A DNA stretch of 64,000 nucleotides, taken from Squalus acanthias (taxonomy: Eukaryota). The notes beneath the pieces are model-generated. The model was given only the letters and a program-made list of their open reading frames with translations. It was not told where the DNA came from and made no database searches. Each line of letters starts with the position of its first letter. Within the stretch, counting starts at the first letter, position 1. The position numbers and the translations under genes are program-made. Positions 13,776 to 63,734 of the stretch are shown here, piece by piece. Location of the stretch: the NCBI GenBank assembly GCA_030390025.1, contig CM059432.1, positions 28,212,001-28,276,000 on the forward strand, in the 5' to 3' direction.

Positions 13776-13894
13776 AAAGACCAATTATCAATTGTGGGAC
13801 CATCCTGATCTGCATGCTATTTAACTATTGTGAGTGTTCCCTTTATTCTAAAACCCATACTCTAATCTCTGTAAAGCAACATCGGGTGACTCAC

Positions 13895-14074
13895 CCTTCT
13901 TCCTGTACAGTACTTGTGGTTCCTCAGGTAGGACAAGGCTGCAGTTCATTGCAGGAGACTCAGGGTCACTACTAGGTTGGCAAAGCTGCGTGTCCGGGTA
14001 CAGCACACATTCATAATGCAGGGCCCTGCTGTCCCGTAAAGATGCCACCTTGCAAAATTTCTCCTCTGTACAAC
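13895..14074 (-). CDS. TG: Thyroglobulin exon (approx. human exon 31)
   Basis: Acceptor ttttcttttcag, donor gtgagt, 180 nt. CTEEKFCKVASLRDSRALHYECVLYPDTQLCQPSSDPESPAMNCSLVLPEEPQVLYRKK vs human CVQEHSFCQLAEI..CTLYPEAQVC..CRLILPQMPKALFRKK. The next exon was not found in the window. Confidence 0.93.
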
Positions 14075-14257
14075 CTGAAAAGAAAATGGAGAAACCAGCT
14101 CAGTGATCAATAAAAAGAACCGGTGAACTCTATTCCATTTCAATTGGGCCAGTTTGGGCACTCCTTAGTTCAAAGCGGGGCAAACGTGAGCCTGGTTACT
14201 TTGAGTGTAATGCTCCACATTTCCTGCCCCCCGGAAGAGTTGGAACTTGAGCTAAGG

Positions 14258-14540
14258 TGTCAGCTGTGACTCAGTGGGTAGCGCATTGGCCTCTGAGTCA
14301 AAAGGTTGTGGAGTTTTCCCTGGAGTCCTGGCCAATATTTATTGCTCAACCAACATCACAGATAAACTGATTATCTGGTCATTATCGCAGTGCTGATTGT
14401 GGGATCTTGCTGTGAGCAAACTGGCTGCTGTGTTTCCTACATTACAAAAGTGATTAGACTTCAAGGGTACGTCATTGGCTGTAAAGTGCTTTGGGACAAC
14501 CTGATGTTGTGAAAGATTCTATATAAGTACAAGTTCTTTT
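14258..14540 (+). mobile_element. Internally deleted DeuSINE copy in the 584-bp TG intron
   Basis: Head and 3' half match 7495-7955; the central core is missing. Confidence 0.8.
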
Positions 14541-14658
14541 TAAAGTTCTTTCCTTAACATTGGTGGTTCCGGACCAAAATTTCAGCTTTAAAATCAGGGA
14601 TTAAGACACAAAATTGATTTAAAATAAATAAGCGATAGATCTAAACTGGATTACTTAC

Positions 14659-14796
14659 GTGCCAGGCACCACAGCTCGGCCTGTGCAGTTGGAAACTGAT
14701 GTTTGAAGAGCTGGTAACGTTGGTTCGGAACAGACTGGTTCAGATCTACTCGGACAAGCCTGGAGTCCAGTCGTGTGAAAAGTTCCCTAGTGGTTT
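14659..14796 (-). CDS. TG: Thyroglobulin exon (approx. human exon 30, also 138 nt)
   Basis: Acceptor ctctgtgttgattag, donor gtaagt. ETTRELFTRLDSRLVRVDLNQSVPNQRYQLFKHQFPTAQAELWCLAR vs human LTTELFSPVD..NQSLSSQKHWLFKHLFSAQQANLWCLSR. Confidence 0.93.
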
Positions 14797-14890
14797 CTAA
14801 TCAACACAGAGAGCAAGTTTTAAATCCACATTGACCCCTAAACCCATCATCTAAAGCTTTCACATATTAACGACTACCATCTTTTTCATG

Positions 14891-16122
14891 CATAGAATCA
14901 TAGAATCATAGAAAGTTACAGCACGGAAGGAGGCCATTTCGGCCCATCGTGTCTGCGCCGGCCAACAAAGAGCTATCCAGCCTAATCCTACTTCCCAGCT
15001 CTTGGTCCGTAGCCCTGCAGGTTACAGCATCCCAAGTGCACATCCAAGTACTTTTTAAATGTGGTTAGGGTTCCTGCCTCTACCACCCTTTCAGGCAGTG
15101 AGTTCCAGACCCCCACAACCCTCTGGGTGAAGAAAGTTCCCCTCAAATCCCATCTAAACTTTCCCTCAATTACATTAAATCTGTGCCCCCTGGTTTTTGA
15201 CTCCTCTGCTAAGGGAAATAGGTCCTTTCTATCCACTTTATCTATGCCCCTCATAATTTTATACACCTCAATAAGGTCTCCCCTCAGCCTCCTCTGTTCC
15301 AAGAAAAACAGACCCAGCTTATCCAGTCTTTACTCATAGCTAAGATTCTCTACGCCCGGCAACATCCTTGTAAATCTCCTCTGTAGCCTCTCTAGTGCAA
15401 TCACATCTTTCCTGTAATGTGGTGACCAGAACTGCACGCAGTACTCTAGCTGAGGCCTAACTAGTGTTCTATACAGTTGAAGCATAACCCCCCTGCTCTT
15501 GTATTCTATGCCACGGCTAATAAAGGCAAGCATTCCATATGCCTTCTTAACCACCTTGGCCTGCTACCTTCAGGGATCTGTGGACATGCACTCCAAGGTC
15601 CCTTTGTTCCTCTACACTACTCAGTGTCCTACCATTTAATGTGTATTCCCTTTCCTTGTTATCCCTCCCCAAATGCATTACCTCACACTTCTCCGGATTG
15701 AATTCCATTTGCCACTGTTCTGCCCACCTGACCAATTTATTGATATCTTCCTGCAGTCTACAGCTTCCTTCTTCAGTATCAACCACACAGCCGATTTTAG
15801 TATCATCTGCAAACTTCTTAATCATACCATATTCAAGTCAAGATCGTTGATAGATACCACAAAAAGCAAGGGACCTAGTACTGAGCCCTGCAGAACCCCA
15901 CTGTAAACAGCCTTCCAGTCACAAAAAACACCCATCAACCATTACCCTCTGCTTCCTATCTCCGAGCCAGTTTTGAATCCAACTTGACACTTTGCCCTGG
16001 ATCCCATGGGCTTTTAACTTCGTGACCAGTCTGCCATGTGGAACCTTATCAAAAGCCTTGCTAAAGTCCATATACACTACATCAAACGCACTACCCTCAT
16101 CTACCCTCTTTGTTATCTCCTC
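14891..16122 (-). mobile_element. 5'-truncated, frameshifted CR1 LINE
   Basis: ORFs 14988..15302, 15330..15554, 15547..15825 and 15919..16188 carry MDFSKAFDKVPH, FADDTK and RRLRGDLIEVYK. (CATAGAAT)n tail. Confidence 0.93.
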
Positions 16123-16339
16123 TGTGTATCTGAAAGTATCTGGGCCAGAACAAGGACCTCCGCGTTTCCGGGTTTCCCTCCCACCCATAACCGCGCTCCC
16201 CCGCTCCCTCCCACCTCCCGTAAATATTGGGGCCTCTTTGTCAGTTATTCCAGTGAAGATATTAACTGATTTAAAATAAACAGGTTAACTCCTTTCCTAA
16301 AATAGCAAACAAAAGAACATGTAGTCATTTAAGATCCAA

Positions 16340-16628
16340 TGGAAGTTTTCAAAATTATGAGCGACTTGGATAAGGTAAATGGGGAAAATTTATTTCAACT
16401 GGTTGGTGAGTCAATAACTAGAGGGCATGAAATTAAGATGATCAAAAGAATGAAGGGAAAGGTTAAGAGAATTTTTTCTTACGCAGATGTTTGGTAGGTC
16501 CCAGCAGAAACAGGCAGCAAAACCTTTGAAAGGGAGGTGGATAAATATTTGAAAAAGAAAAACTTAAAATGTATGGAGAAAGGTCAGGTGAATGGGACTC
16601 AGTGGATAACTCTTTCAGAGAACCAGCA
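16340..16628 (+). mobile_element. Degraded CR1 3' fragment
   Basis: gaagttttcaaaattatgag..actagagggcatgaaattaag..aatttttt motifs. Confidence 0.6.
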
Positions 16629-16629
16629 C

Positions 16630-17457
16630 AACAACAACAGGAGTATTATAAGACAAAGAATTTGACACCGAGCCATATAAAGAGAAATTAGGGCAGATGA
16701 CCAAAAGCTTGGTCAAAGAGGTAGGTTTTAAGGAGCGTCTTAAAGGAGGAAAGAGAGGTAGAGAGGCGGAGAGGTTTAGGCAGGGAATTCCAGAGCTTAG
16801 GGCCTAGGCAATAGAAGGCACAGCCACCAATGGTTGAGCAATTATAATCAGGGATGCTCAAGAGGGCAGAATTAGAGGAGCGCAGATATCTGGGGGAGTT
16901 GTGGGGCTGGAGGAGATTACAGAGATAGGGAGGGGCGAGGCCATGGAGGGATTTGAAAACAAGGATGAGAATTTTGAAATCGAGGCGTTGCTTAACCGGG
17001 TGCCAATGTAGGTCAGTGAGCATAGGGGTGATGGGTGAACGGGACTTGGTGCGAGCAGAGTTTTGGTTGACCTCAAGTTTACGTAGGGTAGAACGTGGGA
17101 AGTCAGCCAGGGGTGCATTGGAACAGTGAAGTCTAGAGGTAACAAAGGCATGGATGAGGAAGCTCATTTCAGGGTCAAATATGACACCAAGGTTGTGAAA
17201 AGTGTGGTTCAGCCTCAGACAGATGTTAAGGAGAGGGATGGAGTCAATGGCTAGGATACGGAGTTTGTGGTGGGGACCGAAAACAATGGCCTCGGTCTTC
17301 CCAATATTTAATTGGAGAAAATTTTTGCTCATCCAGAACTGGATGTCGGACAAGCAGTCTGACAATTTAGAGACCGTGGAGGGGTTGAGAGAAGTGGTGG
17401 TGAGGTAGAGCTGGGTATCGTCAGTGTGGAAACTGACAATGTGTTTTCGGATGATGC
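16630..17457 (-). mobile_element. L2-clade LINE 3' fragment
   Basis: ORF 16688..17467: DDTQLY, WMSKNFLQLNIGKTE, LIHAFVTSRL, PITPMLTDLHW, FKTLLKTYLFDQAF. Confidence 0.9.
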
Positions 17458-17679
17458 ACAGGCACAATGGGCCAAATGGCCTTCTTGTGTGGTGTTAATG
17501 TGCAGCTCCCACAGTCTCTGCTAAATCGATACAAGGAATGGCAAATCAAAATGAACCTGCAAAGTGCTGCTCAGTACCCAAAACTCCTTCACACAACGTT
17601 GAATCTCTCCAGAAGTCTCTCCCTCTCTCTCTCAGAATGCGTTGTTCAAAAATGCCACCAACAATAAAAGACAGGAAGA

Positions 17680-18003
17680 GGCCCCCTTTAAATAGCGCCC
17701 CCCCCAGCCCCACAGCGATTGATAGCGTTCCAGTCTTCTGGTCGTTGGATGCGCCAGGCGGTAAGGCAGGGGGCGCCACTCAATTTCCGCTCCGGGGCGC
17801 CACAAGGGTGTTGCACCATGGAATGTCGTCACAATCTGCGCGCGCAGGTGGTCGCAGCGGTAAAGTTTAGTGCCGCCGCACAATGTCTAGTTTAGTTCCC
17901 AAGCGGCGCAAACATCGCTGCGCCCGGGCGTTAGCGGCTTTGCGCCCCATTAGCGCCCTCTTAAGGCGCTAACGGGAGGCGCAACCAACTGAATTTTTAC
18001 CCC
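17680..18003. mobile_element. CpG-rich terminal fragment of a Harbinger-like DNA element
   Basis: Repeated gcgcc motifs ending gaatttttacccc. Only one terminus is visible. Confidence 0.5.
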
Positions 18004-18789
18004 TATGACTCCCACGTGAATCCATTAAGCGTTTGTATGCAATCATTACACAGAACAATTTCCAGGCCATAGAATCTGTAATAAAAGGCCACTATGGTAG
18101 GGCAACAAGCTGAAGCACTCGAATCCTCTCCTTGATCCAATGCACTGATGATTTCAACCATGTGAGGAGGCACCTAGTAGACCCCAAGTGCCCCCTCACC
18201 GGGAGGCAAGGAAAGCAAGATGGAGACTTCCTGGCATCTGGCTTCAGGCTGGCTTTACTGAAAACCTGCATGTTCTGTCTGCCGGTTGTGGAATGTGGAC
18301 AGGAAGAGAAGGAAAACAGGATAAATATTACAGGGTAAGTCACTTGCACAAGTGATGAAAAAAAAGATAGAACGGCTATTGAAAAGGAATAAAAAGAAAA
18401 AGAAATGCAATACTTTTTAACTTTTAAAAAATCTCCTACCTTGCTCCGTGATCGACTGTACTAGGCAAGGCAGTCCTTTAAATTTTAACCCCTTCTATCT
18501 TAACAACACATGAGACCCAGACTCACTGAGACCTTACTGGCAGGAAATAGGGCATATTACATATTCCCGTCATTAACGTGTCATTTAAATATGGCTGCCC
18601 ATGTTTGGATGGACCTATTCAATGTCCACCATTATTTTGTGTGGGAAATCCAAGAGCGTGGGTAACTCTTCACTGCCCTCTGAAGTGGCCTAGCAAATCA
18701 CTCAGTTGTACCAAACCTCTCAGAGAAATTAGGGATGGACAATAAATGCCGACCTTGCCAGTAACGCACAAATCCCAGGAATGAATAGG

Positions 18790-18940
18790 AAAATAGGAAC
18801 AGGATTCTGCCCCTCGAGCCTGCTCCACCATTCAATTAGATCATGGCTGATCTATACATCAACTCCATTTACTCGCCTTTGCACCATATCCTTACCTAAC
18901 AAAAATCATCGATCTCAGTCTTGAAAACTCTAATTGCCCC
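18790..18940 (-). mobile_element. CR1 3' terminal remnant
   Basis: gcccctcgagcctgctccaccattcaattagatcatggctgatct matches 1261-1305. Confidence 0.75.
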
Positions 18941-19087
18941 ACCTACCATCTGAAATTATGCATAAATATTCAACATTTGCTAGTGCACATCATAGTTTGT
19001 ACATAGACACTTAATACAACATTGTTCTTGGAGAATGCAAGATCTGTAAAAACAGCTATAAACAGCCCTCTTGTGTCTCAGCATTAC

Positions 19088-19171
19088 CTGGTGGATCTGG
19101 GGCCTGTTGATCCTGGGGAACTTTTCCAGCACACTCAGGGGTTGACTTCTGCCGTGTGTTCACGTTGGAAT
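19088..19171 (-). CDS. TG: Thyroglobulin exon (approx. human exon 29)
   Basis: Acceptor attattttcag, donor gtaatg, 84 nt. DSNVNTRQKSTPECAGKVPQDQQAPDPP vs human DSDMGSRPESMGCRKD.., with the single Cys conserved and the frame preserved. Confidence 0.85.
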
Positions 19172-20386
19172 CTGAAAATAATTTGGAACAATAACTTTGG
19201 ATCAAATTTCAGCCAGTGTTGCTAGTGTCGGATTTCTGAGATAAACCTGCCTATAAGAATAGTGCTTGGGCCGGAAACCCAAGTGATATGGTGTGAAGGA
19301 GCGTCCGACTCTGAGTGTCAGTGTGTTTTATCAACCTTGCGCCGTTATGGTCAACAGTGATACTCCACATGCATCCCATTCTTGGAACAGACAAATCGCT
19401 ATGCATGGTTTCGCTGAGAAACCATCGATTTGCAATTTATGGCCTTGAGTTCAAAGTCAGTGCTAAGCCCTGAATTTCAAAACTCGGACAACCTGTTGAG
19501 ATCAGGCCTGGTCTTCATAGGAGAGAAAAATGAGAAGTCACACAACACCAGGTTATAGTCCAACAGATTTATTTAATTAGGAGAGGGTAGTTCATCTCTA
19601 TTATTCATTCTATAACAATTGTTTGCATTCTGGGAATTCTAGGGTAAAAGATCTTCAGATCAGGATATGGGTCCCATCCTGAGGGCCCTGCATTTGGGAA
19701 CAAAACATATAGCGCTGTCAGTTCTAAATAACACTGGCTAAACTGACGTTTTAATGAATGAACAATCAGATGCGGGGGGCGGAGGGAGGGCACTGACCTC
19801 CACATATGAATTCCCGATATGTATTTGCATCATGTGATACTCTGCACCGGGAATACTGGTTCATGCGCATCTAACCCTTAGTGAGAATGAATCAAGGTTT
19901 AGCAGCCATTCTTTCTCAGCTCACTAAGAGATCAATACTAGTTCAAATAAAAATTGGCTGACCTAAATGATTAATGTATGTGTGGTGCTGAGGCATGCAG
20001 ACCAGAAAGGCCGTAGGTTCTATACCCGGTCCGTGCTAACTTAGCTCCTTCCAGGCAGTATGGTGCTGGGGGAGCTATCATTATTTTTCATTGCCACAAA
20101 GGGAGGGAAGGAGGGGAGGATCACAAAGAGACTGGGAGGCGATGCCTGCCACAGTGGAATAGACTTCCATCACTTACTGTCAAGGCTCCCACAAGAAGAA
20201 TGGTCACTTGAGCAAGGTACCAGAGAACTGCTGGCATCCTGAAACCGTATCCAACATGAGATGCGGAAGGGGTAGAAGTCTGGGACGGGGGTGGGGAGGA
20301 GGGGGTGGAAAGGATCAAACAAAATGAGCAATAACAATAAATTTAAAGCAATAATATGGTAAAGTACAGCAGAATATAAAGCTCAC

Positions 20387-20506
20387 CCTGCCAGAGATAA
20401 ATCTGCTGGAAACGGTTAAACGATCTCTGAATTTCCTCCTTCATGTCTGGAGTCAGTTCTGTCGAGTACTCAGCATCCACAAAGTTCTTTGATAAGAGCG
20501 CATAAG
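20387..20506 (-). CDS. TG: Thyroglobulin exon (approx. human exon 28)
   Basis: Acceptor ttatttccgtacag, donor gtgagc, 120 nt, in frame. TYALLSKNFVDAEYSTELTPDMKEEIQRSFNRFQQIYLWQ; the end matches human FTNFQQVYLWK. Confidence 0.88.
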
Positions 20507-21300
20507 CTGTACGGAAATAAAATATCTTAGTTTATTTCAAGTTATCTTTCCTTTGACAGTAATCTGTTCTTTCACGTGATGAGTGCTCATTTTGAAAGTT
20601 ATAAGCGTTTCCTTGTGCACGAGAGAGGAAGAAAATAATCTTTCGGTGTACAGGACAGGAAACAGACATGCACAAGCACAGTGAGGGAGATAAGAGGTTA
20701 GGGAGCAAGGAACTTGAGCATTTTCTGCAGCATTCTTACTGTACTGATACAACCCGCTGTGTTTGAATAAATGAAAGATTGTTGGATCACCCACGTTCTA
20801 TCAACTTATCAGAACGACATGAACAGGTGATGATAGGTTAATAGGGTTTGGTAATGAGCCATCTTTTGAACTGCCTTTCTTCTCGTTCTCTTTCCCTCTC
20901 TGTTTTATCAATATTATGGACAATGCTCTCTGAACTTCCTTCCTGTGTTCCTCCTAAGTTTCATTATAACCACTCTTCCTCCTCCTTCCATCATTCACTT
21001 TTTTTTAAAGTCAAAACTCACTGGCTACTCATTTCAACTCATTTGTTTTTACCCCGGGATCTTAAAACTCCAGGACTCCTTACCACCCTCAGTGTTCCTT
21101 CTGCAAGCTAGGCTTTTTGAAGTCCATGCTTGGAGTTATTTCTTGATTTACCTCATCTTCTCTTCTACTCTTTTCAACATTGGTAGTAATGCAGAATATA
21201 GAGCTGGTGAAGAACCTATCGGATATAGGCTAGCCTATAGGAAACAGAAATAACTAAACCATCTTAACCTTATCTTCAGAAGCCTCCTACTACCCCAGTG

Positions 21301-22045
21301 TGGCCCGTAATTTCCGATGCCTATGGGTGTGTACGAGCTGTGTACACACCCGTAGGGACCTCGCAAGTGCCGGTTTCAGGAATGCGAAGCGCATGCGCTG
21401 AAAACCGGCATTTCCGATCTGTCAAGAATCCTCTTGACAGATCGCACGCCTGCCCTGGAGAAGGGCCTCTGCGGGTGGAGAGTTCCGCTTTCTGCAGAAC
21501 CTTCACCCGCTGAAAACCCTTAAAAATCTTACGCCTGGTAAAAGCCTGCTTTTACCAGCATAAGAGTTTAAAAAAAGTTTATAAAATAATTTCTTTTCAC
21601 TCATTTATAATTTAAAAATACTTTTAAAAAAGGTAAGTTTATTTTTAGCCCTGTAAAAAACTTTAATTATTTTTTTCAAAAAATTAAATTTTTGTTTAAA
21701 ACATTTAATTTAATGTAATTTTAACTCATTTTAAAAACGAGATGGTTTAAAAAAAATTTATTTAATGTTTTGATGTCTTTTTTCAGTGATCCCCATTCAT
21801 ACTTTTGACAGGTCTACCTGACAAAAGTGTGATGGGGGATTCCCTTCTCCCATTGGCTCGCCTGGCCCACGTAATCCCAGGGACGCTTGCGAACTGCCTG
21901 CGCCCCTGGGATATCTGGGCCTCTGCGCGTGCGCACCAGGAGAGGCCCAGGATCGGAAATGGCCGGACATCGGGTAAGGGCGTAGATTTTTTTCCGATAG
22001 GAGGCATCTGCAAGCAAGAAGCCTCCTATCGGAAATTACGGGCCA
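21301..22045. mobile_element. Harbinger-like MITE with perfect 18-bp TIR
   Basis: tggcccgtaatttccgat / atcggaaattacgggcca. GC-rich arms with an AT-rich centre. Related to 27430-28055. Confidence 0.88.
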
Positions 22046-22253
22046 GTATGTTATTTCTATTTCCCATGCCAGTTATCGTCGTAGCCTCTCTGAGATTGCC
22101 AATTTAATGCAAGTAGTTTTGTACCATTGAATTGTTCTCACTAGAATTGGGTTGAATCTTCAGTACCGCGTTTCACTTAGAAGCACGTTAAGACTTGTAA
22201 GTGGTGTACACTAATTCATTCGTTACCAGGAGCTCAAAATCATGAAATTCCTT

Positions 22254-22760
22254 GGGGGAGAAATTCAGCTCACGGCTGCCAATTTTGTACCTGAAAAACA
22301 GGTGGCCTGCAGTTGAAAATCAGGTTGTGGGCTTCTCAGGCCGCCCCACTGACGGCCATGCTTGCCCGTAAATGAATGAGCAGCACGCCTGCCTGAAACG
22401 GGCGCAAGACTGCTTAAATGTGCAAAGTAGAGTTCCATGTAAGTTGTAGGACCCCGATTGCAAAATTCTGGTACAAATGGGTGTTGAACCAGGCGGGAAG
22501 GGACCACTGGAGGCTGCTCAAAAAACAGGCCCAGGAAATTTTCCGTTTTTATTTTTGTGGAGTCAGGAGAAGCAGGCGCGTTCCTCTTGGGCCCGCGAAG
22601 AAACTGTGGCCCGCTGCCGGAGCGTTCGAGGCCCTACCTGGTCCAGTGTGGGAGCCAGATGATTTCTCGCCCTCTCCGACCAGCGAGCTACAGCGGGGTG
22701 CCCATTTGGTGCCCCCAGCAGGCTGGCGGCATTTGGTTCGGGCCAAATTTAGCTTGGGCC
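22254..22760. mobile_element. GC-rich MITE-like element
   Basis: Begins gggggagaaattc and ends near gccaaatttagc. Architecture resembles neighbouring MITEs; termini are degenerate. Confidence 0.5.
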
Positions 22761-22949
22761 TCTGGCTAGCACGAACCAGCACAAGGCGAGCCCGTTCTGG
22801 GCACTTTGATTTTCTTGGCGCTATCTGCCTCAGCCTTCCCTTCCTCCTACAGTCTACACCCTTTTAAATCCCATGCTGTATTCAACTAACCACTACTCAT
22901 TGATTTACCCCATCTTCCCTCTTTCATCATGTACTATGTCCTTGGCCCT

Positions 22950-23047
22950 TGGCGGGTAAATGGAGTTGAAGTACAGATCTGCCATGATCTAATTGAATTG
23001 TGGAGCAGGCTCAAGGGGCTGTATGGCTTACTCCTGTTCTTATGTTC
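22950..23047 (+). mobile_element. CR1 3' terminal remnant
   Basis: cagatctgccatgatctaattgaattgtggagcaggctcaagggg..ctcctgttcttatgttc. Confidence 0.7.
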
Positions 23048-23608
23048 AACTATATTTCTCAAAAATGCCATCAGGCTGGATAGGATCTGAACATAGGTTC
23101 TAGGTGTGCCTACCCCCCGTATCACCCAGCCTCGCCAACAAAGAATGAAGTTTAAACATCTGAGGTAAGCCAACCCTTTAGCAGCGCTGGGAGCAGAAGC
23201 TAGTGTTGATGTTGAAAAATCACAGCCCTATGAGGCATTGCTGGCCCAAAGCCTGGAGATCTCAGGGGTCGATACCCGGTCAAAGAGAAACACGACAAAG
23301 AATCGGGTCTGTATGTTGCGATGAATGGCATGGCTCCAGCTTTAAAAATTAAATTGTTGCCACAATATTTTAACATCAAACTGAGCATTCTCTTCAATGT
23401 AAAAACAATGAATTTGATCTACATGTTGTGGAGAGGCATTATTCATGGATGTTTATTATCTTACTGATGGTTACAAACATTTGTTTAATTGAATGTCAGT
23501 AAATTTACTGGACGTTACGCAGGACTTATTATTAATATAAATCCAGCAAAGCCACAGAGATCGTTCACATTCTCTGAGAGAGGGTCACCAGAGTAGACTA
23601 ATTATACT

Positions 23609-24835
23609 ATAGCAAAATACTGCGGATGCTGGAAATCCGAAATAACAACAGAAAACGCTGGAAAAACTCAGCAGGCCAGGCAGCATCCGTGGAGAGAGAA
23701 ACAGAGTTAACGTTTCAGGTCGAAGACCTTTCGTCAGAACTGGAAAAAAGCAGGAAATGAAATAGATTTAAAGCAAGGATAAAGCTGGGAAAAGGGGGAG
23801 GGGATGAAAGAACAAAAGGAGAGATTAAGAGACATTGAGAGACATTAAGAGATGATCAAGGCAAGAGGAGGTGTTGATGTAACAGGTTGAGGCTAAATGA
23901 AGTGTGAAATGCACTGGCAGAATGAAGGACAGCTGCCAGCTTGTGGGAGGAAAAAAAAGGTGGGGTGCCAAACAAAAGGGTGGATGAAAAAATAAAATAT
24001 AAATGTGAAGGGGCTAAGGTTATGATCTAAAATTGTTGAACTTGATGTTGAGTCCAGAAGGCTGTAGGGTGCCTAAACGAAAGATGAGGTGCTGTTCCTC
24101 GAGCTTACGCTGCGCTTCAGTGGAACAGTGTAATAGGCCGAGGACGGAGAGGTCAGAGTGGGAGTGAAGTGGAGAATTAAAGTGACAGGTTACCGGGAGC
24201 TCGGGTGAAACAGCGATTTACTTGTACTTCCTGCAATTTAGTATACTGTATTCGCTGCTCACGATGTGGTCTCCTCTGCATTGGGGAGACCAAACGCAGA
24301 TTGGGTGACCGCTTTGCGGAACACCTCCATTCAGTCCGTAAGAGGGACCCCCGAGCTCCCGGTGGCCTGTCACTTTAATTCTCCGCTCCACTCCCACTCT
24401 GACCTCACCATCCTCGGCCTATTACACTGTTCCACGGAAGCGCAGCGTAAGCTCGAGGAACAGCACCTCATCTTTCGTTTAGGCACCCTACAGCCTTCTG
24501 GACGCAACATCGAGTTCAACAGTTTCAGATCATAACCTCGGCCCCTATCACATTTATATTTTATTTTTTCATCCACCCTTTTGTTTGGCACCCCCCGCTT
24601 TTTCTTTTCCTCCCAGAAGCTGGCAGCTGTCCTTCATTCTGCCAGTGCATTTCACACTTCATCCAGCCTCAACCTGTTACATCAACACCTCCTCTTGCCT
24701 TGATTACCTCTTAATGTCTCTCAGTATCTCTTAATCTCTCCTTTTGTTCTTTCATCCCCTCCCCCTTTTCCCAGCTTTATCCTTGCTTTAAATCTATTTC
24801 ATTTCCTGCTTTTTTCCAGTTCTGACGAAAGGTCT
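23609..24835. mobile_element. Penelope-like element, inverted (fold-back) insertion with GIY-YIG remnant
   Basis: The + strand from ~24208 reads KQRFTCTSCNLVYCIRCSRCGLLCIGETKRRLGDRFAEHL, then frameshifts to PELPVACHFNS..AQRKLEEQHLIFRLGTLQPSGRNIEF. Arms 23723-24205 and 24350-24835 are inverted copies. 15-bp TSD tagactaattatact at 23594-23608 and 24836-24850. Confidence 0.92.
23703..23743 (-). ncRNA. Minimal type-I hammerhead ribozyme motif (Penelope-associated)
   Basis: Minus strand: AGUU-CUGACGA-A-AGGUC-UUC-GACCU-GAAAC-GUU-AACU. Core CUGAnGA and GAAA, 5-bp stem II, palindromic AACGUU stem III, 4-bp stem I. Confidence 0.7.
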
Positions 24836-24903
24836 TAGACTAATTATACTGTACAGTTTGTGTTGATGCAGAATCATTCTGGCTCCATATTGAAGCAAGC
24901 TGT

Positions 24904-25948
24904 ATTCTTCTTTCTTCTTTCGTATGGTAGTAGCAAAGCAAATCAGATGTCAATATCTAAGTCAGATATCCAGGCCAAAGCTTCTGGTGTAACAGCGTGG
25001 ATATCTTGTAGGCTGTCTGCGAATTTCCTCTGAGGGCAGTGCTCAATGATGTGCTCCAGGGTCTGATCAGGAGCCCCACAGTCACATGATGGGGATGCTT
25101 TAATCTTCCATCTATGGAGAAGGTGGCAGCATCTACCATGACCAGTTCTGAGGCGGATGATGGTTGTCCACTGTTTGCGAGGAAGGTTTGATCCTTCAGG
25201 TTGTACTGTGGGGTCCTCTATAAGGAATCCATTCTTTACGTCACAGTTCTTCCAAGCATTTCGCCATCGGTCATCAAGACTGAGGAGAGATCACTGAAGG
25301 GCTTCGGCGACTGTCCAAAATGGCCTTCTAGATTTGAGACGAGTTGGTGGTAGGTTGTTCAAGTTGGCCTGGATCGGCATGTCTTTGCTGGTGTAGCGGT
25401 TGTATTCTCTGGAGACTGCATATTCGCGGCGTAGGTGTGGTGGTGCGATGTTTGCAAGCGTGGGCAGCCAAGGTGTTGGTGTCGATAAAAGCGTACCGGT
25501 GATAATTCTTATAGTAGAATTCAGCTGGACATCAACAGATTTGACATGCGGACTCGATAGCCATGCCGGAGAGCAGTACTCCGCTGTAGGGTACACCAGG
25601 GCAAGTGCTGCCGTACGGAGGGTTTGAGCGTCTGCTCCCCATGTGGATCTGGCGAGTTTCTGGATCAAGTTGACCCTGCTCTTTAGGTTCTGGAGATGTT
25701 GTCTATACGACAGGATGCGATCGAGTGTGATTCCTAAATAGGAGTTTTTTTTGGCATGGTTTACCTCTGCGCTGCAAAAGAAGACTTTCAAAGCTTTGTT
25801 TGCTTGATGGGTGCTGAGGTGGAATGTCGAGGTGACGGTCTTTTGCGGATTTGGCCGAAGTCGCCATCGGCGGAAGTAGGCCTCCATCCTCTGTAAATTA
25901 CTGGTCAGGGTCTCTTCGGTGATGGACAGATTCATGTTTTGCATGGCC
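24904..25948 (-). mobile_element. 5'-truncated Vingi/Ingi-like (I-group) LINE
   Basis: ORF 25291..25950: WRLRPNPQKT, YLGITLDRILSY, WGADAQTLRTAALALVY..AEYCSPAW, LANIAPPHLRR. 3' end CATACG(AAGA)n. 11-bp TSD aagcaagctgt at 24893-24903 and 25949-25959. Confidence 0.82.
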
Positions 25949-26694
25949 AAGCAAGCTGTGCAGTATAACTGGATCCTGATGTGGGATAGATCAGGACTAA
26001 TTTTGGTCTAATAGTGTCAGAACACGTTTGAGACAGTCTCGTACCTTTTCAGCTTCGCACTGGCTATAGTTTAACTGCAACTGTGTGAAAAGAACTTTGA
26101 ACTTCAAATCCCACATTCTTGCCACTGACTCCATTCTCTCTTCTGACTACTCGCTCAGGATGAACCAGTCCATGTTAAAAACTTTGTATCCGAACCTCAC
26201 ATTTCATCCATCACCAGGACTTCTCATTTCCATCTCTGCAGCATTGCCTGCTTCCACCTCTACCTCAGTTCCATCACTGCTGACATGCTTATCCACGCTT
26301 TCATCACCTCTGGACTCAATGCGAGGAATTACACACACAAACTCATGCCAGGCCATTGTGTCACCCTGTTCACCCAATTCACGCACCAGCCCCTACCTCT
26401 TCTGTTCTTCATGTGTGAAGCTAAACAGTGACTGTCAACAGGCTATTCAATGAGAGACAAGTTAGATCATGTGCTCACCTGATGTCCACAGCCAACTTTC
26501 TAGCATGTCCCCTGGATAGCCATCAGGAACTGGAACTTTAACTACTTTTTTTTCCCTCTCTAGATAGAGGCTACCAACACCCTGGTGAGAACAACTAACT
26601 CAGCTCAGACCAGGCAGCAAATCTTGTACCTTTCTAGTGTGTGTAGCTCAGTCCAAATTGGGCAATGTAAGTACAAATCAAGCCATTGTCTCTA

Positions 26695-26945
26695 TTTGAA
26701 GAAGAGCACAGGAGCTCTCCCCAGTGTCATGGTCAACATTTATCCCGCAACCAACAGATTATCTGGTCATTATTTAATTGCTGTTTGTGGGAGCTTGCTG
26801 TGTGCAAATTGCCTGACGCGTTTCCTACATTCCAATAATGACTGCACTACAAAAGTACTTAGCTGGGTGTAAAATGGTTTGGGATGTCATGAGATCATGA
26901 AAGACGCTATATAAATGCAAGCCTTTCTTTTCTTTTTTTTCTTTC
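26695..26945 (+). mobile_element. DeuSINE 3' half
   Basis: cagattatctggtcatt..gctgtttgtgggagcttgctgtgtgcaaatt..cgctatataaatgcaag matches 7495-7955. Older remnants lie at ~28990-29130 and ~63418-63520. Confidence 0.8.
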
Positions 26946-27019
26946 TATTATTTAAGGCTGACCACTGTTGGATCATTGTTGGACCAGGAATTATCCATGC
27001 CTGCAAGCTGTTTACTTAC

Positions 27020-27187
27020 TGCCGATGAACTCCAGTCCTCCAAAGCTGAACATGAATGTCTTCTTCTCTGTGTTGGACTTCACACCTCTACAAACACCCT
27101 CTCCACCAAGCAGCGATGTTTCCTGCCAGTCATCATCATTGCAAAGCAGCACATCTGGAAAACTGATCAGACCACAGAGGAGGGTAC
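27020..27187 (-). CDS. TG: Thyroglobulin exon (approx. human exon 27)
   Basis: Acceptor ttttggattgcag, donor gtaagt, 168 nt. GTLLCGLISFPDVLLCNDDDWQETSLLGGEGVCRGVKSNTEKKTFMFSFGGLEFIG vs recalled human GAIICGLLSSPSVLLCNVKDW..CPGV..LGDQEFI. Lies inside ORF 27012..27209. Confidence 0.93.
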
Positions 27188-27429
27188 CTGCAATCCAAAA
27201 CCCACACAAGTAAGTGCCATGGATGCCCTTTCAATTCCACTCTATTCCATGAAATGTATTGGCAAAATAATCCTGAACTGATGGGTGAGATTAACGAAAG
27301 CCCCACACGGAGAGTATGTCGAGGACTATTACATTTGGAGCATGCACTAGAGGGAGCACTTCTGTGTAGTTGTAGTCTCAGTTCCTACCACTAGGAGAGT
27401 TAATTTCAACACAGAAATAGAAATACATT

Positions 27430-28055
27430 GGGCCTGAAATTATGGTGCTTTCGCGTACACTGTCGAAAGCCTTCAGATAGGCCCCGCAAGTTCTGGGTTT
27501 CTGCATGCGCGAAAACCCGAAACTTGCGATCTATCAAGTTTCGTATTGACAGATCCTTCACATCCGCTACAAAATCACTTCCGCTGACGCAGAGTTCGGC
27601 TATTTGCAGCGAATGCCCACAAAACCCTTACGCCTGGTAAAAGCAGGTGTAAGGCCTTCTTTTAAAAGCGTAAGGGTTACAATAAATGTTAAAATAAACT
27701 TTTTAAAATGATTAAAACATACACATGCATTTAAAATGTTTATTTTAAATACTTAAATAAAGGGTCTTTTAATTAATTTTGAACATGGGAACATTTATTT
27801 TTATTTAAGTGGCGTGAATTCTTATTTATTTAGGGATTTCTAATATGCTTATGGGGATTCTGTACGTAAATGATTGGTTGACCGGGCCCACATGAACCAC
27901 ATGAACCCCTGGGATCTGTGGGCCTTTATGCAGGCGTACATCTGGAGACCCAGGACCCGAAGAATCCGAAGCTCCGGAGACACCAGGTACGTTCGGATTT
28001 TTTTTCGGTTTGGAGGCATATTCTCTGGTACGCGTCCGACCGCAAATTCAGGGCC
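27430..28055. mobile_element. Harbinger-like MITE
   Basis: Ends gggcctgaaatt / aaattcagggcc with 3-bp TSD ATT on both sides. Shares cttacgcctggtaaaagc and ttgacagatc with 21301-22045. Confidence 0.82.
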
Positions 28056-28399
28056 ATTGAAGTTACAACACAGAAACAGCCATTCAGCCCAAACTAGTCC
28101 TATGTTCCTATTGGAGGAAGGATCTTTGAAGTTCAGAGATTACAATGGCAGAAAGTTGAAGTTTTATGCATCAAATACATTTTAACTAAAAGATGTGGAG
28201 ATCTATGTTAGTTGAATTACTGCAAATGGTATTTTGGTAAGAAATTGCTATTGAAATTGTTTGTGTGCTATTATAAATTAAACTATTATCTGCATTGAAT
28301 TCAATTGAGCTGGCATGTCTGCTTCTTCTACTACCTAAGCTCAATAACTAAATTTACTCAAACTTAAAAAAATAATCAGGATAAAGTTTATTCTATGAA

Positions 28400-28780
28400 T
28401 TCATAGAATCAAAGAATCTTTAAGCATAGAAGGAGGTCATTCATCATGCCTGTGCTGGCTCTTTGAAAGCTATCCAATTAATCCTACTTCCCTGCTCTTT
28501 CCCCACAGCCCTGCAACTTTCTCCTTGTCAAGTATATATCCAATTTCCTTTTGAAAGTTACGATAGAATCTACCTCCACCACCCTTTCAGGCAGTGCATT
28601 CCAAATCATAACAACGTGATGCGTAAAAAAAAATCTCCTCTCTTGAGGGAAATAAACTTGCAGGGCGACGGGGATAGAGCGGGGGAATGGGACTGACTTG
28701 ATTGCTCTGCAGAGAACCAGCACAGACTCGATGGGCCGAATGGCCTCCTTCTGTGACGTTATGACTCTATGACTCAATGA
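28400..28780. mobile_element. Two CR1 3' ends joined in opposite orientation
   Basis: Minus-strand end at 28400-28635 (catagaat tail) and plus-strand end at ~28645-28780 (tatgactc tail). Confidence 0.75.
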
Positions 28781-29571
28781 CTCTGGTTCTTTTGCCAACT
28801 GTGGGACAATATCTTTGGTGCCATTAGAAGATGGGAGGAGAAATTTGGGGAAGAAAAAAAATACTATTTGACAAATCTTCAGTTGTTTACAAAAATGCAA
28901 CACCCCAGACCAAATTGAAGTTCATGATGTCGTAGAAATTAACAAAGTTGTGTCGTCAACCAACACCACCTAGAAATAGGCTGACTGGCTGTTTGTGGGA
29001 TGTTGCTGTGCACAGATGGCTGCCACATGTGTCTACATGACAACAGTCACTTCAAAAGAGTAATGCATTTGTATGAAGCACGTGGTGATGCTCAGACAGC
29101 ATGATAAGGTGTTATATATCTGCTTTCTCTTCCAGCTAATCTCTCCATCCTAAACAAACCTAAATTTTGACAAATACCCTTTTATGAAGACGCTGCCTCT
29201 TTAAAACATTTAAATAAAAACACAACTACCTGTTATTCCATGAATTTTTCCGACAATTTGTTTGTGGCTGAATCACGCTAATACAGACTGACAAATTGCT
29301 TCCATGACATGAGAACCCAAACATTTTCTGTATAGTTTTAAGCATGATGGTGCATTTTATTAGCATGACTGAATTTTCCTGCAGTAAACAGATGGCAAGA
29401 TATTCCTTCAACCTTGTGATTCACAGGTCATTAGGCTGCAAAGCTCACCAAAATATTGCAGAAAGTCAACTACCCTAACATTTGAGCTGATAATGAATTC
29501 CCCATTACAGTGTGCTGTCTAGCACATAACTCTCCACTGTTTCAAACGTGCAATATAATCCACAGAGAGCC

Positions 29572-56500: not shown

Positions 56501-59500
56501 TCTATATAATGTAGGACCCAGTCCAGCGGCTCTCCTCTATATAATGTAGGACCCAGTCCAGGGGCTCTCCTCTATATAATGTAGGACCCAGTCCAGGGGC
56601 TCTCCCCTATATAATGTAGGACCCAGTCCAGGGACTCTCCCCTATATAATCTAGGACCCAGTCCAGGGGCTCTCCCCTATATAATGTAGGATCTAGTCCA
56701 GGGGCTCTCCCCAATATAATGTAGGACCCAGTCCAGGGGCTCTCCTCTATATAATGTACGACCCAGTCCAGAGGCTCTCCCCTATATAATGTAGGACCCA
56801 GTCCAGGGGCTCTCCCCTATATAATGTAGGACCCAGTCCAGGGGCTCTCCCCGATATAATGTATTACCCCAGTCCAGGGGCTCTCTCCCTATATAATGTA
56901 GGACACATTCCAGAGGCTCTCCCCTATATAATGTAGGACCCAGTCCAGGGGCTCTCCCCTATATAATGTAGGACCCAGTCCAGGGGCTCTCCCCGATATA
57001 ATGTATTACCCCAGTCCAGGGGCTCTCTCCCTATATAATGTAGGACACATTCCAGAGGCTCTCCCCTATATAATGTAGGACCCAGTCCAGGGGCTCTCCC
57101 CTATATAATGTAGGACCCAGTCCAGGGGCTCTCCCCGATATAATGTATTACCCCAGTCCAGGGGCGCTCTCCCTATATAATGTAGGACACATTCCAGGGG
57201 CTATCTCCTATATAATGTAGGACCCAGCCCAGAGATCACCCCTATAATATGTGGGACCCAGACCAGGGGTTCTTCCCTATATAATGTAGGACAAATCCAG
57301 TGCTATCTCCTATATAATATAGGACCCAGTCCAGTTGGTCGCCCCTATATAATGTAGGACCCAGTCCAGGGGATCTCCCCTATATAATGTAGGACCAAAG
57401 TCCAGGGGATCTCCCCTATACAATGTAGATCCCACTCCAGAGATCTGTCCTATATAATGTAGGATCCAGTCCAGACATCTGCCCTATAATATGTAGGAAC
57501 CTGTCCAGAGATCTGTCCTGTATAATGTAGGACCCGGTCCACGGCTCTCCCCTATATAATATAGATTCCAGTCCAGGGGCTCTCTCCTATATAATGAAGG
57601 GCCCAGTCCAGGAGCTCTCCCCTATATAATGTAGGACCCAGTCCAGGGGCTCTTCCCTTTGTAATGAAGGAGCAAGTCCAGGGGCTCTACCCTATATAAT
57701 TTGGGGCCAGTCTAGGTGCTCTCTCCTATATAATGTAGGACCCATCCAGGGCTATCTCCTATATAATATAGGACCCAGTCCAGGTGGTCTCCCCTATATA
57801 ATGTAGGACCCATCCAGGGCTATCTCCTATATAATGTAGGACGCAGTCCAGTGGATCTCCCCTATATAATGTAGGACCCAGTCCAGGGGATCTCCCCTAT
57901 ATAATGTAGATCCCACTCCAGAGATCTGTCCTATATAATGTAGGACCCAGTCCAGACATCTCCCCTATAATATGTAGGAACCTGTCCAGAGATCTGTCCT
58001 ATATAATGCAGGATCCAGTCCAGGGGCTCTCCCCTATATAATGTAGGACCCAGTCCAGGGCTCTTCCCTACATAATGTAGGACCCAGTCCAGGGGCTCTC
58101 TCCTATGTAATGAAGGACCAAGTCCAGGGGCTCTACCCTATATAATTTGGGGCCAGTCTAGGTGCTCTCCCCTATATAATGTAGGATCCTGTCCAGGGCT
58201 CTCCCCTGTGTAATGTCGCACCCAGTCCAGGGGCTCTCTCCTATTTAATGAAGGACCCAGTCTAGGGATCTTCCCTATTTAATGCAGGAGCCAGTCCAGG
58301 GGCTCTCCCATAAATAATGTAGGACACAGACCAGGGACTCTTCCCTATATAATGTAGTACTCCAGTCCAGGGGCTATCTCCTATATAACATAGGACCAAG
58401 TCCAGGGGCTCTCCCCTGTATAATGTAGGACACAGTCCAGGGGCTCTCCCGTATATAATGTAGGACCACTCCCAGGAGCTCTCCCATATATAATGTAGGA
58501 CCCAGTCCAGAGATCTCTCCTGTATAATGTAGGATCCAGTCCGGGGCTCTCTCCTATATAATGTAGGATCCATTCCAGGAGCTCTCTCCTATATAATGTA
58601 GGACCTAGTCCAGAGATCGCGCCTATATAATGTTGGACGCAGTCCAGGGGCCCTCCGCGATATAGTGTAGGATCGTGTCCAGGGGCTCTCTCCTATATAA
58701 TGTAGGACCCAGTCCAGGGGCTCTCCTCTATATAATGTAGGACCCAGTCCAGGGGCTCTCCCCTATATAATGTAGGACCCAGTCCAGGGGCTCTCCTCTA
58801 TATAATGTAGGACCCAGTCCAGGGGCTCTCCTCTATATAATGTAGGACCCAGTCCAGGGGCTCTCCTCTATATAATGTAGGACCCAGTCCAGGGGCTCTC
58901 CCCTATATAATGTAGGACCCAGTCCAGGGGCTCTCCCCTATATAATGTAGGACCCAGTCCAGGGGCTCTCCCCTATATAATCTAGGACCCAGTCCAGGGG
59001 CTCTCCCCTATATAATCTAGGACCCAGTCCAGGGGCTCTCCCCTATATAATGTAGGACCCAGTCCAGGGGCTCTCCCCTATATAATGTAGGACCCAGTCC
59101 AGGGGCTCTCCCCGATATAATGTATTACCCCAGTCCAGGGGCTCTCTCCCTATATAATGTAGGACACATTCCAGAGGCTCTCCCCTATATAATGTAGGAC
59201 CCAGTCCAGGGGCTCTCCCCTATATAATGTAGGACCCAGTCCAGGGGCTCTCCCCGATATAATGTATTACCCCAGTCCAGGGGCTCTCTCCCTATATAAT
59301 GTAGGACACATTCCAGAGGCTCTCCCCTATATAATGTAGGACCCAGTCCAGGGGCTCTCCCCTATATAATGTAGGACCCAGTCCAGGGGCTCTCCCCGAT
59401 ATAATGTATTACCCCAGTCCAGGGGCTCTCTCCCTATATAATGTAGGACACATTCCAGGGGCTATCTCCTATATAATGTAGGACCCAGCCCAGAGATCAC

Positions 59501-62500
59501 CCCTATAATATGTAGGACCCAGACCAGGGGTTCTTCCCTATATAATGTAGGACAAATCCAGTGCTATCTCCTATATAATATAGGACCCAGTCCAGGTGGT
59601 CGCCCCTATATAATGTAGGACCCAGTCCAGGGGATCTCCCCTATATAATGTAGGACCAAATTCCAGGGGATCTCCCCTATACAATGTAGATCCCACTCCA
59701 GAGATCTGTCCTATATAATGTAGGATCCAGTCCAGACATCTGCCCTATAATATGTAGGAACCTGTCCAGAGATCTGTCCTGTATAATGTAGGACCCGGTC
59801 CACGGCTCTCCCCTATATAATATAGATTCCAGTCCAGGGGCTCTCTCCTATATAATGAAGGGCCCAGTCCAGGAGCTCTCCCCTATATAATGTAGGACCC
59901 AGTCCAGGGGCTCTTCCCTATATAATGAAGGAGCAAGTCCAGGGGCTCTACCCTATATAATTTGGGGCCAGTCTAGGTGCTCTCTCCTATATAATGTAGG
60001 ACCCATCCAGGGCTATCTCCTATATAATATAGGACCCAGTCCAGGTGGTCTCCCCTATATAATGTAGGACCCATCCAGGGCTATCTCCTATATAATGTAG
60101 GACGCAGTCCAGTGGATCTCCCCTATATAATGTAGGACCCAGTCCAGGGGATCTCCCCTATATAATGTAGATCCCACTCCAGAGATCTGTCCTATATAAT
60201 GTAGGACCCAGTCCAGACATCTCCCCTATAATATGTAGGAACCTGTCCAGAGATCTGTCCTATATAATGCAGGATCCAGTCCAGGGGCTCTCCCCTATAT
60301 AATGTAGGACCCAGTCCAGGGCTCTTCCCTACATAATGTAGGACCCAGTTCAGGGGCTCTCTCCTATGTAATGAAGGACCAAGTCCAGGGGCTCTACCCT
60401 ATATAATTTGGGGCCAGTCGAGGTGCTCTCCCCTATATAATGTAGGATCCTGTCCAGGGCTCTCCCCTGTGTAATGTCGCACCCAGTCCAGGGGCTCTCT
60501 CCTATTTAATGAAGGACCCAGTCTAGGGATCTTCCCTATTTAATGCAGGATCCAGTCCAGGGGCTCTCCCATAAATAATGTAGGACACAGACCAGGGACT
60601 CTTCCCTATATAATGTAGTACTCCAGTCCAGGGGCTATCTCCTATATAACATAGGACCAAGTCCAGGGGCTCTCCCCTGTATAATGTAGGACACAGTCCA
60701 GGGGCTCTCCCGTATATAATGTAGGACCACTCCCAGGAGCTCTCCCATATATAATGTAGGACCCAGTCCAGAGATCTCTCTTATATAATGTAGGACCCAG
60801 TCCAGAGATCTCCCCGAAATAATGCTTGACCCAGTCCAGGGGCCCTCCGCCATATAATGTAGGACCCAGTCCAGGGGCTCTCCCCTATATAATGTAGGAC
60901 CCCATCCAAAGATATCTCATATATAATGTAAGATCCATTCCAGGAGCTCTCTCCTATATAATGTAGGACCTAGTCCAGAGATCGCGCCTATATAATGTTG
61001 GACGCAGTCCAGGGGCCCTCCGCGATATAGTGTAGGATCGTGTCCAGGGGCTCTCTCCTATATAATGTAGGACCTAGTCCAGAGAGCTCACCCCCATATA
61101 ATTTAGGACCCAGTCCAGGGGCTCTCTCCTACATAATGCAGGACCCAGTCCAGGGGCTCTCTCCTATATAATGTAGGACCCAGTCCAGGGGGTCTCTCCT
61201 ATATAATGTAGGAGCCAGTCCAGGGGCTCTCCCCTATATAATGTGGGATCTAGTCCCGGGGCTCTTCCCAATATAATGTAGGAGCCAGTCCAGGGGCTCT
61301 CCCCTATATAATGTGGGATCTAGTCCCGGGGCTCTTCCCAATATAATGTTGGATCCAGTCCAGGTACTCTCCCCTATATAATGTAGGAACCAGTCCAGGG
61401 GCTCTCCCGTTTATAATGTAGATTCCAGTCCAGTGGCTCTCCCGTTTATTTTGTAGGACCCAGTCCAGGGGCTCTCCCCTATATAATGTAGGACCCAGTC
61501 CAGGGGCTCTTCCCTATATAATGTACGACTCAGTCCAGGGGCTCTCCCCTATATAATGTAGGACCCAATCCCGGGGCTCTCCCCTATATAATGAAGGACC
61601 CAGTCCAGGGGCTCTTCCATATATAACGTAAGACCCAGTCCAGGGGCTCTACCCTATATAATGTAGGTCCCAGTCCAGGGGCTCGCCCCTATATAATGTA
61701 GGATCCAGTCCAGGGGCACTCCTCTATATAATGTAGGATCCAGTCCAGGGGCTCACCCCTATATAATGAGGGTCCAGTCGAGGGGCTCTCCTCTATATAA
61801 TGTAGGATCCAGTCCAGGGGCTCTCCTCTATATAATGTAGGACCCAGTCCAGGGGCTCTACCCTATATAATGTAGGACCCAGTCCAGGGGCTCTCCTCTT
61901 TATAATGTAGGATCCAGTCCAGGGGCTCTCCTCTATATAATGTAGGACCCAGTCCAGGGGCTCTCCCATATATAATGTAGGACCCAGTCCAGGGGCTCTT
62001 CCATATATAACGTAAGACCCAGTCCAGCGACTCTCCCCTACATAATGTAGAATCCAGTCCAGACATCGCTCCTATATAATGTAGGACCCAGTCCAGGGGC
62101 TCATCCCTATATAATGTAGGATCCAGTCCAGGGGCTCTCCCCTATATAATGTAGGATCCAGTCCAGGGGCTCTCCTCTTTATAATGTAGGACCCAGTCCA
62201 GGGGCTCTCCCCTATATAATGTAGAATCCTGTCCAGAGATCTCTCCTATATAATGTAGGAACCAGACCAGGGGCTCTCCCCTATATAATGTAGAACTAAG
62301 TCCAGGGGCACTTCCCTATATAATGTAGGATCCAGTCCAGGGGCTCTCCCCTATATAATGTAGAACTAAGTCCAGGGGCACTTCCCTATATAATGTAGGA
62401 CCCAGACCAGGGGCACTTCCCTATATAATGTATGACCCAGTCCAGGGGCTCTCCTATATAATGTAGAATCCAGTCCAGAGATCTCTCCTATATAATGTCG

Positions 62501-63417
62501 GAACCAGACCAGGGGCTCTTTCCAATATAATGTAGGACCCAGTCCAGAGATCCTTCCTATATAATGTAGGAACCCAGTCTTGGGGCTCTCTCCTATATAA
62601 TGTCGGATCCATTCCAGGGGCTCTCCCCTATATAATGTAGGACCCCTGTCTCGGAGCTCTCCCCTATATAATGTAGGACCCAGTCAGTGATCTCGCCTGT
62701 ATAATGTAGGACCCAGTCCAGAGATCTCTCCCCTATATAATGTAGGTCCCAGTCCACGTGCTCTCCCCTATATAATGTAGGATCCAGTCTAGGGGCTCTC
62801 CCCTATATAATGTAGGACCTAGTCAAGGGGCTCTCTCCTATATAATGTAGGACCAATTCCAGGGGCTCTCCCGTATATAATGTAGGACCCAGTCCAAAAA
62901 GCACTCCTCTATATAATGTAATACCCAGTACAGATGCTCTTTTCTATATACAGGAAACTTTCGTTTATCCGGCATCAACGGGACCGGCGTGGTGCCGGTT
63001 TATCGAAAGTACCGGATAACGGAGAGATATATCTACCGAGGCTATTTTTAACAAAGAGACTCCAGGCAGCACGGGAGAATCAACTCCTGCTACTGTAGTG
63101 TTTCGGAATTCTGACAGCGCCAGGAGGCCGAGTAGTGGCACTTTTGAAAAGTACCCCTACTGACTAAATCGGCGTTCGTGGACTCGGACTCGGACTCGGG
63201 ATCGGCAACATTGCCGGTTATTTGAGAGGAGTTTTCGGAGCACTCGGCGTTCGCGGAGACTCGACTGCGACTCGGCAACATTGCCGGTTATTTGAGAGGA
63301 GTTTTCGGAGGATGATTTTTGCCGGTTAAGCGAGAATTCCGGATATTTGGGTGCCGGATAAACGAAAGTTTCCTGTAATGTATTATCCAGTCCAGGTGTT
63401 CTCCCCTATATAATGTA
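29572..63417. repeat. ~33.8-kb tandem satellite, 35-bp monomer ATGTAGGACCCAGTCCAGGGGCTCTCCCCTATATA, about 965 copies, intronic in TG
   Basis: The 35-bp period is directly visible (atgtagga at 29881, 29916, 29951). Single orientation throughout, substitution and 1-bp indel variants, degenerate edges. Copy number is length divided by 35. Confidence 0.98.
62951..63375. mobile_element. Tc1/mariner (pogo/Tigger-like) non-autonomous MITE, 425 bp
   Basis: Perfect 24-bp TIRs (caggaaactttcgtttatccggca / tgccggataaacgaaagtttcctg) and a TA TSD at 62949-62950 and 63376-63377. Internal 37-bp direct repeat ggcaacattgccggttatttgagaggagttttcggag. Confidence 0.92.
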
Positions 63418-63536
63418 CTACATTACACCAGTGACTGCACCAAATTAAAAAAGTATGAAAAGTGCTTTGGTACGTTTCTGAGGGGTGATGAAGTCCCATA
63501 TAAATGCAAGTCTTTTCTTTTAAAGATTTATTGTAC

Positions 63537-63734
63537 CTCTGTCAATTGTTAAGTGACTCAACACGAAGCCATCACAGCACTGTTCCATGCCACAGGTCTG
63601 TCTGCAGAAATGATGTACATCTGTTAAGCTCGAACCATCTGCGGAAAAAGCCAATGCCTGGTATACGCCTGTAATCACGTTACGAAAATCTGTCCGTACG
63701 AAGGTCTTTTGGAATGAAGTGGTGAATTCATGAC
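63537..63734 (-). CDS. TG: Thyroglobulin exon (approx. human exon 26), type-3 repeat region
   Basis: Acceptor ttttctccag, donor gtacaa, 198 nt, phase 1-1. Translates GHEFTTSFQKTFVRTDFRNVITGVYQALAFSADGSSLTDVHHFCRQTCGMEQCCDGFVLSHLTIDR, which matches recalled human TG (..QKRFEPTGFQNMLSGLY..LTDAHLFCLLACDRDLCCDGFVLTQV..). Confidence 0.93.

Follow-up and report, generated by a model that had tools for sequence, protein, structure and literature searches.

A middle stretch of the thyroglobulin gene of the shark Squalus acanthias and its satellite-filled intron

The window analysed here is a 64,000-nt stretch of Squalus acanthias DNA (assembly GCA_030390025.1, contig CM059432.1, positions 28,212,001–28,276,000), and it carries on its minus strand six exons that encode part of thyroglobulin (TG), the thyroid hormone precursor. 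The encoded segment is the orthologue of vertebrate TG region III, collinear with it and ungapped against shark TGs, and the six exons very probably form the middle part of a TG gene that is single and working in this shark, with canonical splicing over a satellite-filled intron. An earlier reading made from the letters alone (the sequence-only reading) had called this gene segment hidden, which holds in so far as no open reading frame (ORF) track assembles the exons, ORF callers not splicing, and fails in that TG is annotated in many sharks. TG has already been named for 14 elasmobranchs in RefSeq, which makes this an unexceptional orthologue, invisible to an ORF track that does not splice, and the overall significance of a confirmed, ordinary middle stretch of shark TG is small.

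The protein encoded by the window was absent among the 18 matches of a search with a skate TG, a weak word-index search, and the TG of this species may be unannotated in the database searched. The literature searched, mostly without subscription papers, yielded no work on the structure of the TG gene in sharks. The exon boundaries are useful for annotation and for primers and antibodies with which to study the elasmobranch thyroid, a subject called poorly known in the available part of a review (PMC7681243).

Exon structure and open frame

Exons were located by scanning both strands for open phase-1 segments between AG and GT of the sizes given in the sequence-only reading, and one set of six, on the minus strand, matches its outer coordinates. 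Splice sites are canonical throughout, with acceptors ending in AG and donors beginning with GT. Exons and introns are listed in order of transcription; human exon numbers are presumptive.

63537–63734, minus strand: TG exon A, 198 nt, putative human exon 26, 3a1/3b1 boundary, 4 Cys
27188–63536, minus strand: intron A–B, 36,349 nt, GT-AG
27020–27187, minus strand: TG exon B, 168 nt, putative human exon 27, 3 Cys
20507–27019, minus strand: intron B–C, 6,513 nt
20387–20506, minus strand: TG exon C, 120 nt, putative human exon 28
19172–20386, minus strand: intron C–D, 1,215 nt
19088–19171, minus strand: TG exon D, 84 nt, putative human exon 29, 1 Cys
14797–19087, minus strand: intron D–E, 4,291 nt, with a fragment of long interspersed nuclear element (LINE) reverse transcriptase at 14994–16140
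14659–14796, minus strand: TG exon E, 138 nt, putative human exon 30, 3b1/3a2 boundary, 1 Cys
14075–14658, minus strand: intron E–F, 584 nt
13895–14074, minus strand: TG exon F, 180 nt, putative human exon 31, with five of the 3a2 cysteines

Joined, exons A–F give 888 nt, all in phase 1, with 0, 12 and 18 stops in the three frames; the open frame holds 295 full codons and 14 cysteines. The 296 codons reported earlier are these 295 with the two split end codons counted in.

The window contains 3,049 open AG..GT segments of 60–300 nt, and since such segments are frequent by chance, homology is needed for exon identity. Only 52 of them match the TG of the sawshark Pristiophorus japonicus (UniRef, P0075) at E ≤ 1e-4; 49 overlap the six exons and the remaining three are a single weak plus-strand match at 7716–7802. 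The exons tile residues 1768–2062 of the sawshark protein (A 1768–1832, B 1834–1888, C 1890–1928, D 1930–1956, E 1958–2002, F 2004–2062), each separated from the next by a single junction residue, which fixes each exon boundary. The earlier claim of six GT-AG, phase-1, minus-strand exons that splice to 888 nt without a stop is thereby borne out.

Canonical GT-AG splicing of the minus-strand transcript would remove five introns, one of them 36 kb long and satellite-filled, and the spliced product would yield 295 residues of disulfide-bonded type-3 repeats within the hormone precursor.

Identity as thyroglobulin

Searched singly against PDB with phmmer, four of the exons match thyroglobulin chains and nothing else: exon A (human residues 1685–1741, E 1.1e-15), exon B (1747–1799, E 1.1e-05), exon E (1852–1894, E 3e-06) and exon F (1900–1954, E 3.4e-12). 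Exons C and D gave no TG match in PDB, and no Pfam family rose above cut-off on any of the six; an Ig_GP210 match on exon F fell below the Pfam threshold and was rejected. Together with the 3,049 open segments, these blanks are what could be said for the exons being chance AG/GT segments or parts of another cysteine-rich gene. Against this stand the exclusively thyroglobulin matches of A, B, E and F and the 92% ungapped, in-order identity to sawshark TG, which refute that explanation and leave it a negligible probability. By exon, identity to the sawshark is 85% (A), 93% (B), 87% (C), 93% (D, E 4e-15), 100% (E) and 95% (F).

Wider searches agree. Exon A compared with 1.84 billion representatives returned 51 proteins, and seven of the ten clusters looked up are named thyroglobulin or thyroglobulin-like; ten candidate proteins of 115–2000 residues, shorter than TG, contained no homologue of exon A searched alone. 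Of the 18 proteins matched by the skate TG query, 12 are elasmobranch proteins that carry the name TG.

For alignment and phylogeny 22 TGs were chosen, 14 from elasmobranchs (8 sharks and 6 batoids) and 8 others, partial and fused records being excluded. The 295-residue peptide aligns ungapped with all eight shark TGs at 78–92% identity. Pristiophorus shares the same 295 residues and the same 14 cysteines, with 24 substitutions (271 identical), followed by Heterodontus (260) and Heptranchias (259); the models of Cetorhinus, Scyliorhinus, Mustelus, Chiloscyllium and Rhincodon likewise have the same ungapped length. Identity is 64–76% to the six batoids and 33–51% to the eight non-chondrichthyans, the mammalian TG aligned (Psammomys) being about 41% identical. 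In the tree the peptide is sister to Pristiophorus TG with support of 98/96, which by itself points to a shark, probably a squalomorph, in a comparison that included only two squalomorphs. Its end branch, at 0.031, is shorter than that of its sister (0.065) and than the median (0.095), and gives no sign of decay.

The comparison with vertebrate TGs that had been suggested as a check therefore returned TG as best match, with 271 of 295 residues identical to the sawshark. PDB matches, sawshark tiling and ungapped alignment agree on the proposed type-3-repeat identity, and its attribution to a chondrichthyan TG fits the position closest to the shark Pristiophorus among the 22 TGs compared.

Cysteines, repeats and place in the protein

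All 14 cysteines are kept in 22 of the 22 vertebrate TG homologues aligned. Eight line up directly with human TG in 6SCJ (C1724, 1728, 1733, 1734, 1749, 1760, 1777 and 1893), and C1835, 1897, 1904, 1919, 1928 and 1939 are matched by way of the skate TG, a route that recovers all 14; the human numbers were counted by hand from alignments. The assertion that every cysteine has its human counterpart is therefore upheld, for eight directly and for 14 through the skate. The segment is collinear with human residues ~1682–1954 (PDB 6SCJ, 7B75), and its cysteines fall into eight at human C1724–C1835 and six at C1893–C1939, the 8 + 6 type-3 pattern. It comprises the tail of repeat a1, the whole of b1 with its eight cysteines, and six cysteines of a2, all of region III.

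We take the human repeats to begin at C1724 (3b1) and C1893 (3a2), following UniProt. With these starts, exons A–F presumably correspond to human exons 26–31, and the five exons found here between the 3b1 and 3a2 starts agree in number with human exons 26–30. As far as the available part of bioRxiv 10.1101/2025.06.18.660348 goes, human repeat 3b1 lies on exons 26–30 and 3a2 on exons 30–33, and b modules have eight cysteines and a modules six; the portions available of PMC8748809 and PMC13078365 give the a/b counts the other way round.

In the accessible part of PMC8748809, repeats 3a1–3a2 sit in a flexible "wing" of TG and the hormone-forming tyrosines are named elsewhere, so that the segment would be scaffold. 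Disulfide-stapled within the "wing" of the dimer, it would scaffold the secreted, iodinated precursor of thyroxine and triiodothyronine (T4/T3).

Exon C is ~18 residues longer than the corresponding mammalian region. The additional residues are shared by 14 of 14 elasmobranchs and 2 of 2 amphibians aligned, and are therefore no innovation of this shark. At exon B, the TG model of Hypanus sabinus (P0074) has a 54-residue insertion with extra cysteines that resembles a tandem exon-B copy, and is either an exon duplication or an annotation error.

Indirect support for splicing from sequencing-run contigs

Ten sequencing runs, none with a library or tissue record, share words with 13895–14796; seven of them are presumed by guess to be RNA, and four of the ten were aligned to 13500–27500 at 85% likeness, a span outside which exon A lies. 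In one presumed RNA run (X1), 0.29 of the sampled words of 13895–14796 were present, against 0.296 expected for exons only. A contig from this run (record 8; 569 nt, depth 20.8) stops exactly at the exon-B donor, 27020, with 0 differences, and continues in other letters; depth in the bin 20505–20971 is 0.09, equal to two exon-C bases at depth 20.8 (0.089). The stop at the donor and this bin depth point to a join of B to C, and suggest that the B–C junction is used in X1. In another run (X3), a 269-nt contig matches 14657–14796 with 0 differences and has 54 and 75 other letters at its sides; the two nucleotides by which it overhangs exon E are a GT shared with exon F. Taken together, the two contigs, from runs presumed to be RNA, indirectly support splicing at three sites.

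Completeness of the gene and its flanks

In the window, tblastn with eight full-length shark TGs found the six exons only, as did a profile of 16 TGs run over six-frame pieces of at least 15 residues. The flanking 40–48 residues on each side, taken from three shark TGs, gave best E-values of 0.02–4 against the window; as a positive control for this search, the smallest exon came back at E-values between 1e-13 and 1e-18. The plus-strand match at 7716–7802 covers 16 residues, lies on the wrong strand within a dispersed repeat, was obtained with one of eight sharks at E 0.079 and is missing from the profile search; it was rejected. With no TG exon in 1–13894, the next exon lies more than 13.9 kb past F if the gene continues, which adds one presumptive feature to those above:

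1–13894, minus strand: presumed intron downstream of exon F, 13.9 kb or longer, with LINE reverse transcriptase pieces and no TG match

The rest of the window is likely intronic: between the exons by construction, and in 1–13894 and 63735–64000 if the gene continues. The sequence-only reading had everything else in the window intronic, and this stands between the exons; for the two flanks, where no neighbouring TG exon lies, it is conditional. Its description of the gene as functional fits an intact segment whose branch is not lengthened, and extends by inference to a protein of which about one tenth lies in the window. The signal peptide, 11 type-1 repeats, 3 type-2 repeats, ChEL domain and N- and C-terminal hormonogenic tyrosines of vertebrate TG would be encoded beyond the window. 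Intactness of the remaining gene and its expression in the thyroid, which the sequence-only reading had also proposed, are presumed from the family.

Alternative explanations

Several observations weigh against a single working gene spliced as described. Among the 3,006 contig joints, the 15 listed are all at repeats and none is a TG junction, which makes the support for the junctions indirect; in the four runs aligned to 13500–27500, junctions A–B and C–D have no contig support; and it is by guess only that the runs behind the contig evidence are taken as RNA. The contig from X1 also extends beyond the exon-B acceptor by 23 nt, as far as 27210, before it departs, and a plain A–B splice does not explain this overrun into 27188–27210. 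It matches 27020–27210 with 0 differences, while its other 185–193 upstream letters are absent from 27211–27500, and the bin depth of 8.11 compares with 7.63 accounted for by the matched part. Finally, about 10% of the TG coding sequence is visible in the window, which leaves room for damage in another part of the gene or for a partial duplicate.

The overrun could mean that the working gene also makes a transcript in which exon B starts 23 nt early and is preceded by an upstream piece, through an intronic promoter or cryptic exon; such a transcript would be non-coding or would encode a shortened region III–ChEL product. A parallel comes from lamprey, for which the available part of bioRxiv 10.1101/2025.06.18.660348 describes a TG transcript with a novel promoter proposed as its source. 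Nevertheless, the evidence comes from one contig of one run guessed to be RNA, 27211–27212 holds no AG, and the break is explained equally well by structural polymorphism in the sampled organism or by a reverse transcription stop with template switch at an A resembling a branch point. The break falls right after the A (27211) of a CTTAC, 24 nt before exon B, which by the consensus looks like a branch point. An additional transcript of this kind is accordingly unlikely, and it is rather less likely still that a TG transcript arises from the 36-kb intron by internal initiation or cryptic splicing, with the satellite array as a regulatory or splicing element and not inert filler. A second copy of the segment could be the source of the departure at 27210, if the six exons were a recent partial duplicate or young TG pseudogene, the working gene lying elsewhere or being broken outside the window. 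That no neighbouring TG exons lie in the window, and that one skate has two partial TG models (1289 and 362 aa) on the same chromosome, would accord with this. It is nonetheless improbable, as the six exons extend over 50 kb without stop, frameshift or loss of a splice site, the end branch in the TG tree is short, the flanks are just 13.9 kb and 266 nt when introns here reach 36 kb, and human TG is single-copy according to the part available of PMC13078365.

The satellite-filled intron

Intron A–B of the working gene, as we read it, is mostly occupied by a satellite, next to which lies a miniature inverted-repeat transposable element (MITE)-like insertion.

29573–62940, no strand assigned: 35-bp tandem (satellite) array found with TRF, ~957 units, 33.4 kb, 92% of intron A–B
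62949–63377, no strand assigned: MITE-like element, ~430 bp, flanked by TA at both ends, its 24-bp terminal inverted repeats matching perfectly

A further single satellite unit at 63385–63419 lies ~117 nt from the exon-A donor, and it is striking to find a 33-kb satellite tolerated so close to a splice donor in a conserved gene with high expression. Units have a mean identity of 91% to the consensus, even along the array (845 units called at ≥24/35), and the observed/expected CpG ratio is 0.15 in the array against 0.44 in 1–29572. Two near-exact duplications are present within the array, 40120–43494 versus 43402–46776 (99.8%, 3.3-kb period) and 56747–58542 versus 59008–60803 (99.2%, 2.3-kb period), which may reflect recent unequal exchange or amplification, or an assembly error.

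Duplication of TA is a mark of Tc1/mariner elements. The MITE-like element sits in the TATATA of a satellite unit at the edge of the array, and with TA included its ends form a 26-nt perfect inverted match (62949–62974 and 63352–63377). An internal direct repeat lies at 63169–63310 within the element.

In the available part of bioRxiv 10.1101/443036, whale shark introns are described as repeat-expanded and rich in LINEs, and satellites within introns are not discussed there. The introns of the two sharks are alike in their length and LINE pieces, whereas in the longest of those found here a single 35-bp array takes the place of LINEs.

Other repeats and frames

Beyond the exons, an uninterrupted LINE reverse transcriptase frame of 567 aa lies at 1455–3155 on the minus strand (RVT_1, E 3.1e-31), presumably CR1-like by resemblance. 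Related fragments are found at 4008–4717, 8247–8396, 10576–11185, 13533–13775, 14994–16140 and 28490–28639. Among 101 stop-to-stop frames of at least 75 aa outside the satellite, Pfam matches were confined to RVT_1 (three) and the sub-threshold match on exon F, and neither Rfam nor ARAGORN returned a match in the window (0 each), tests for nested genes that would miss a long non-coding RNA or an unrelated gene with short exons.

Intron B–C contains an inverted pair, 23719–24205 and 24350–24840 (490 bp, 94.7%, 144 nt apart), that could fold the pre-mRNA into a long hairpin. A 31-bp tandem array of ~14 units occupies 6361–6795. Two minus-strand frames, 16691–17494 (268 aa) and 25294–26007 (238 aa), have no Pfam match and presumably resemble 3' parts of other LINE families.

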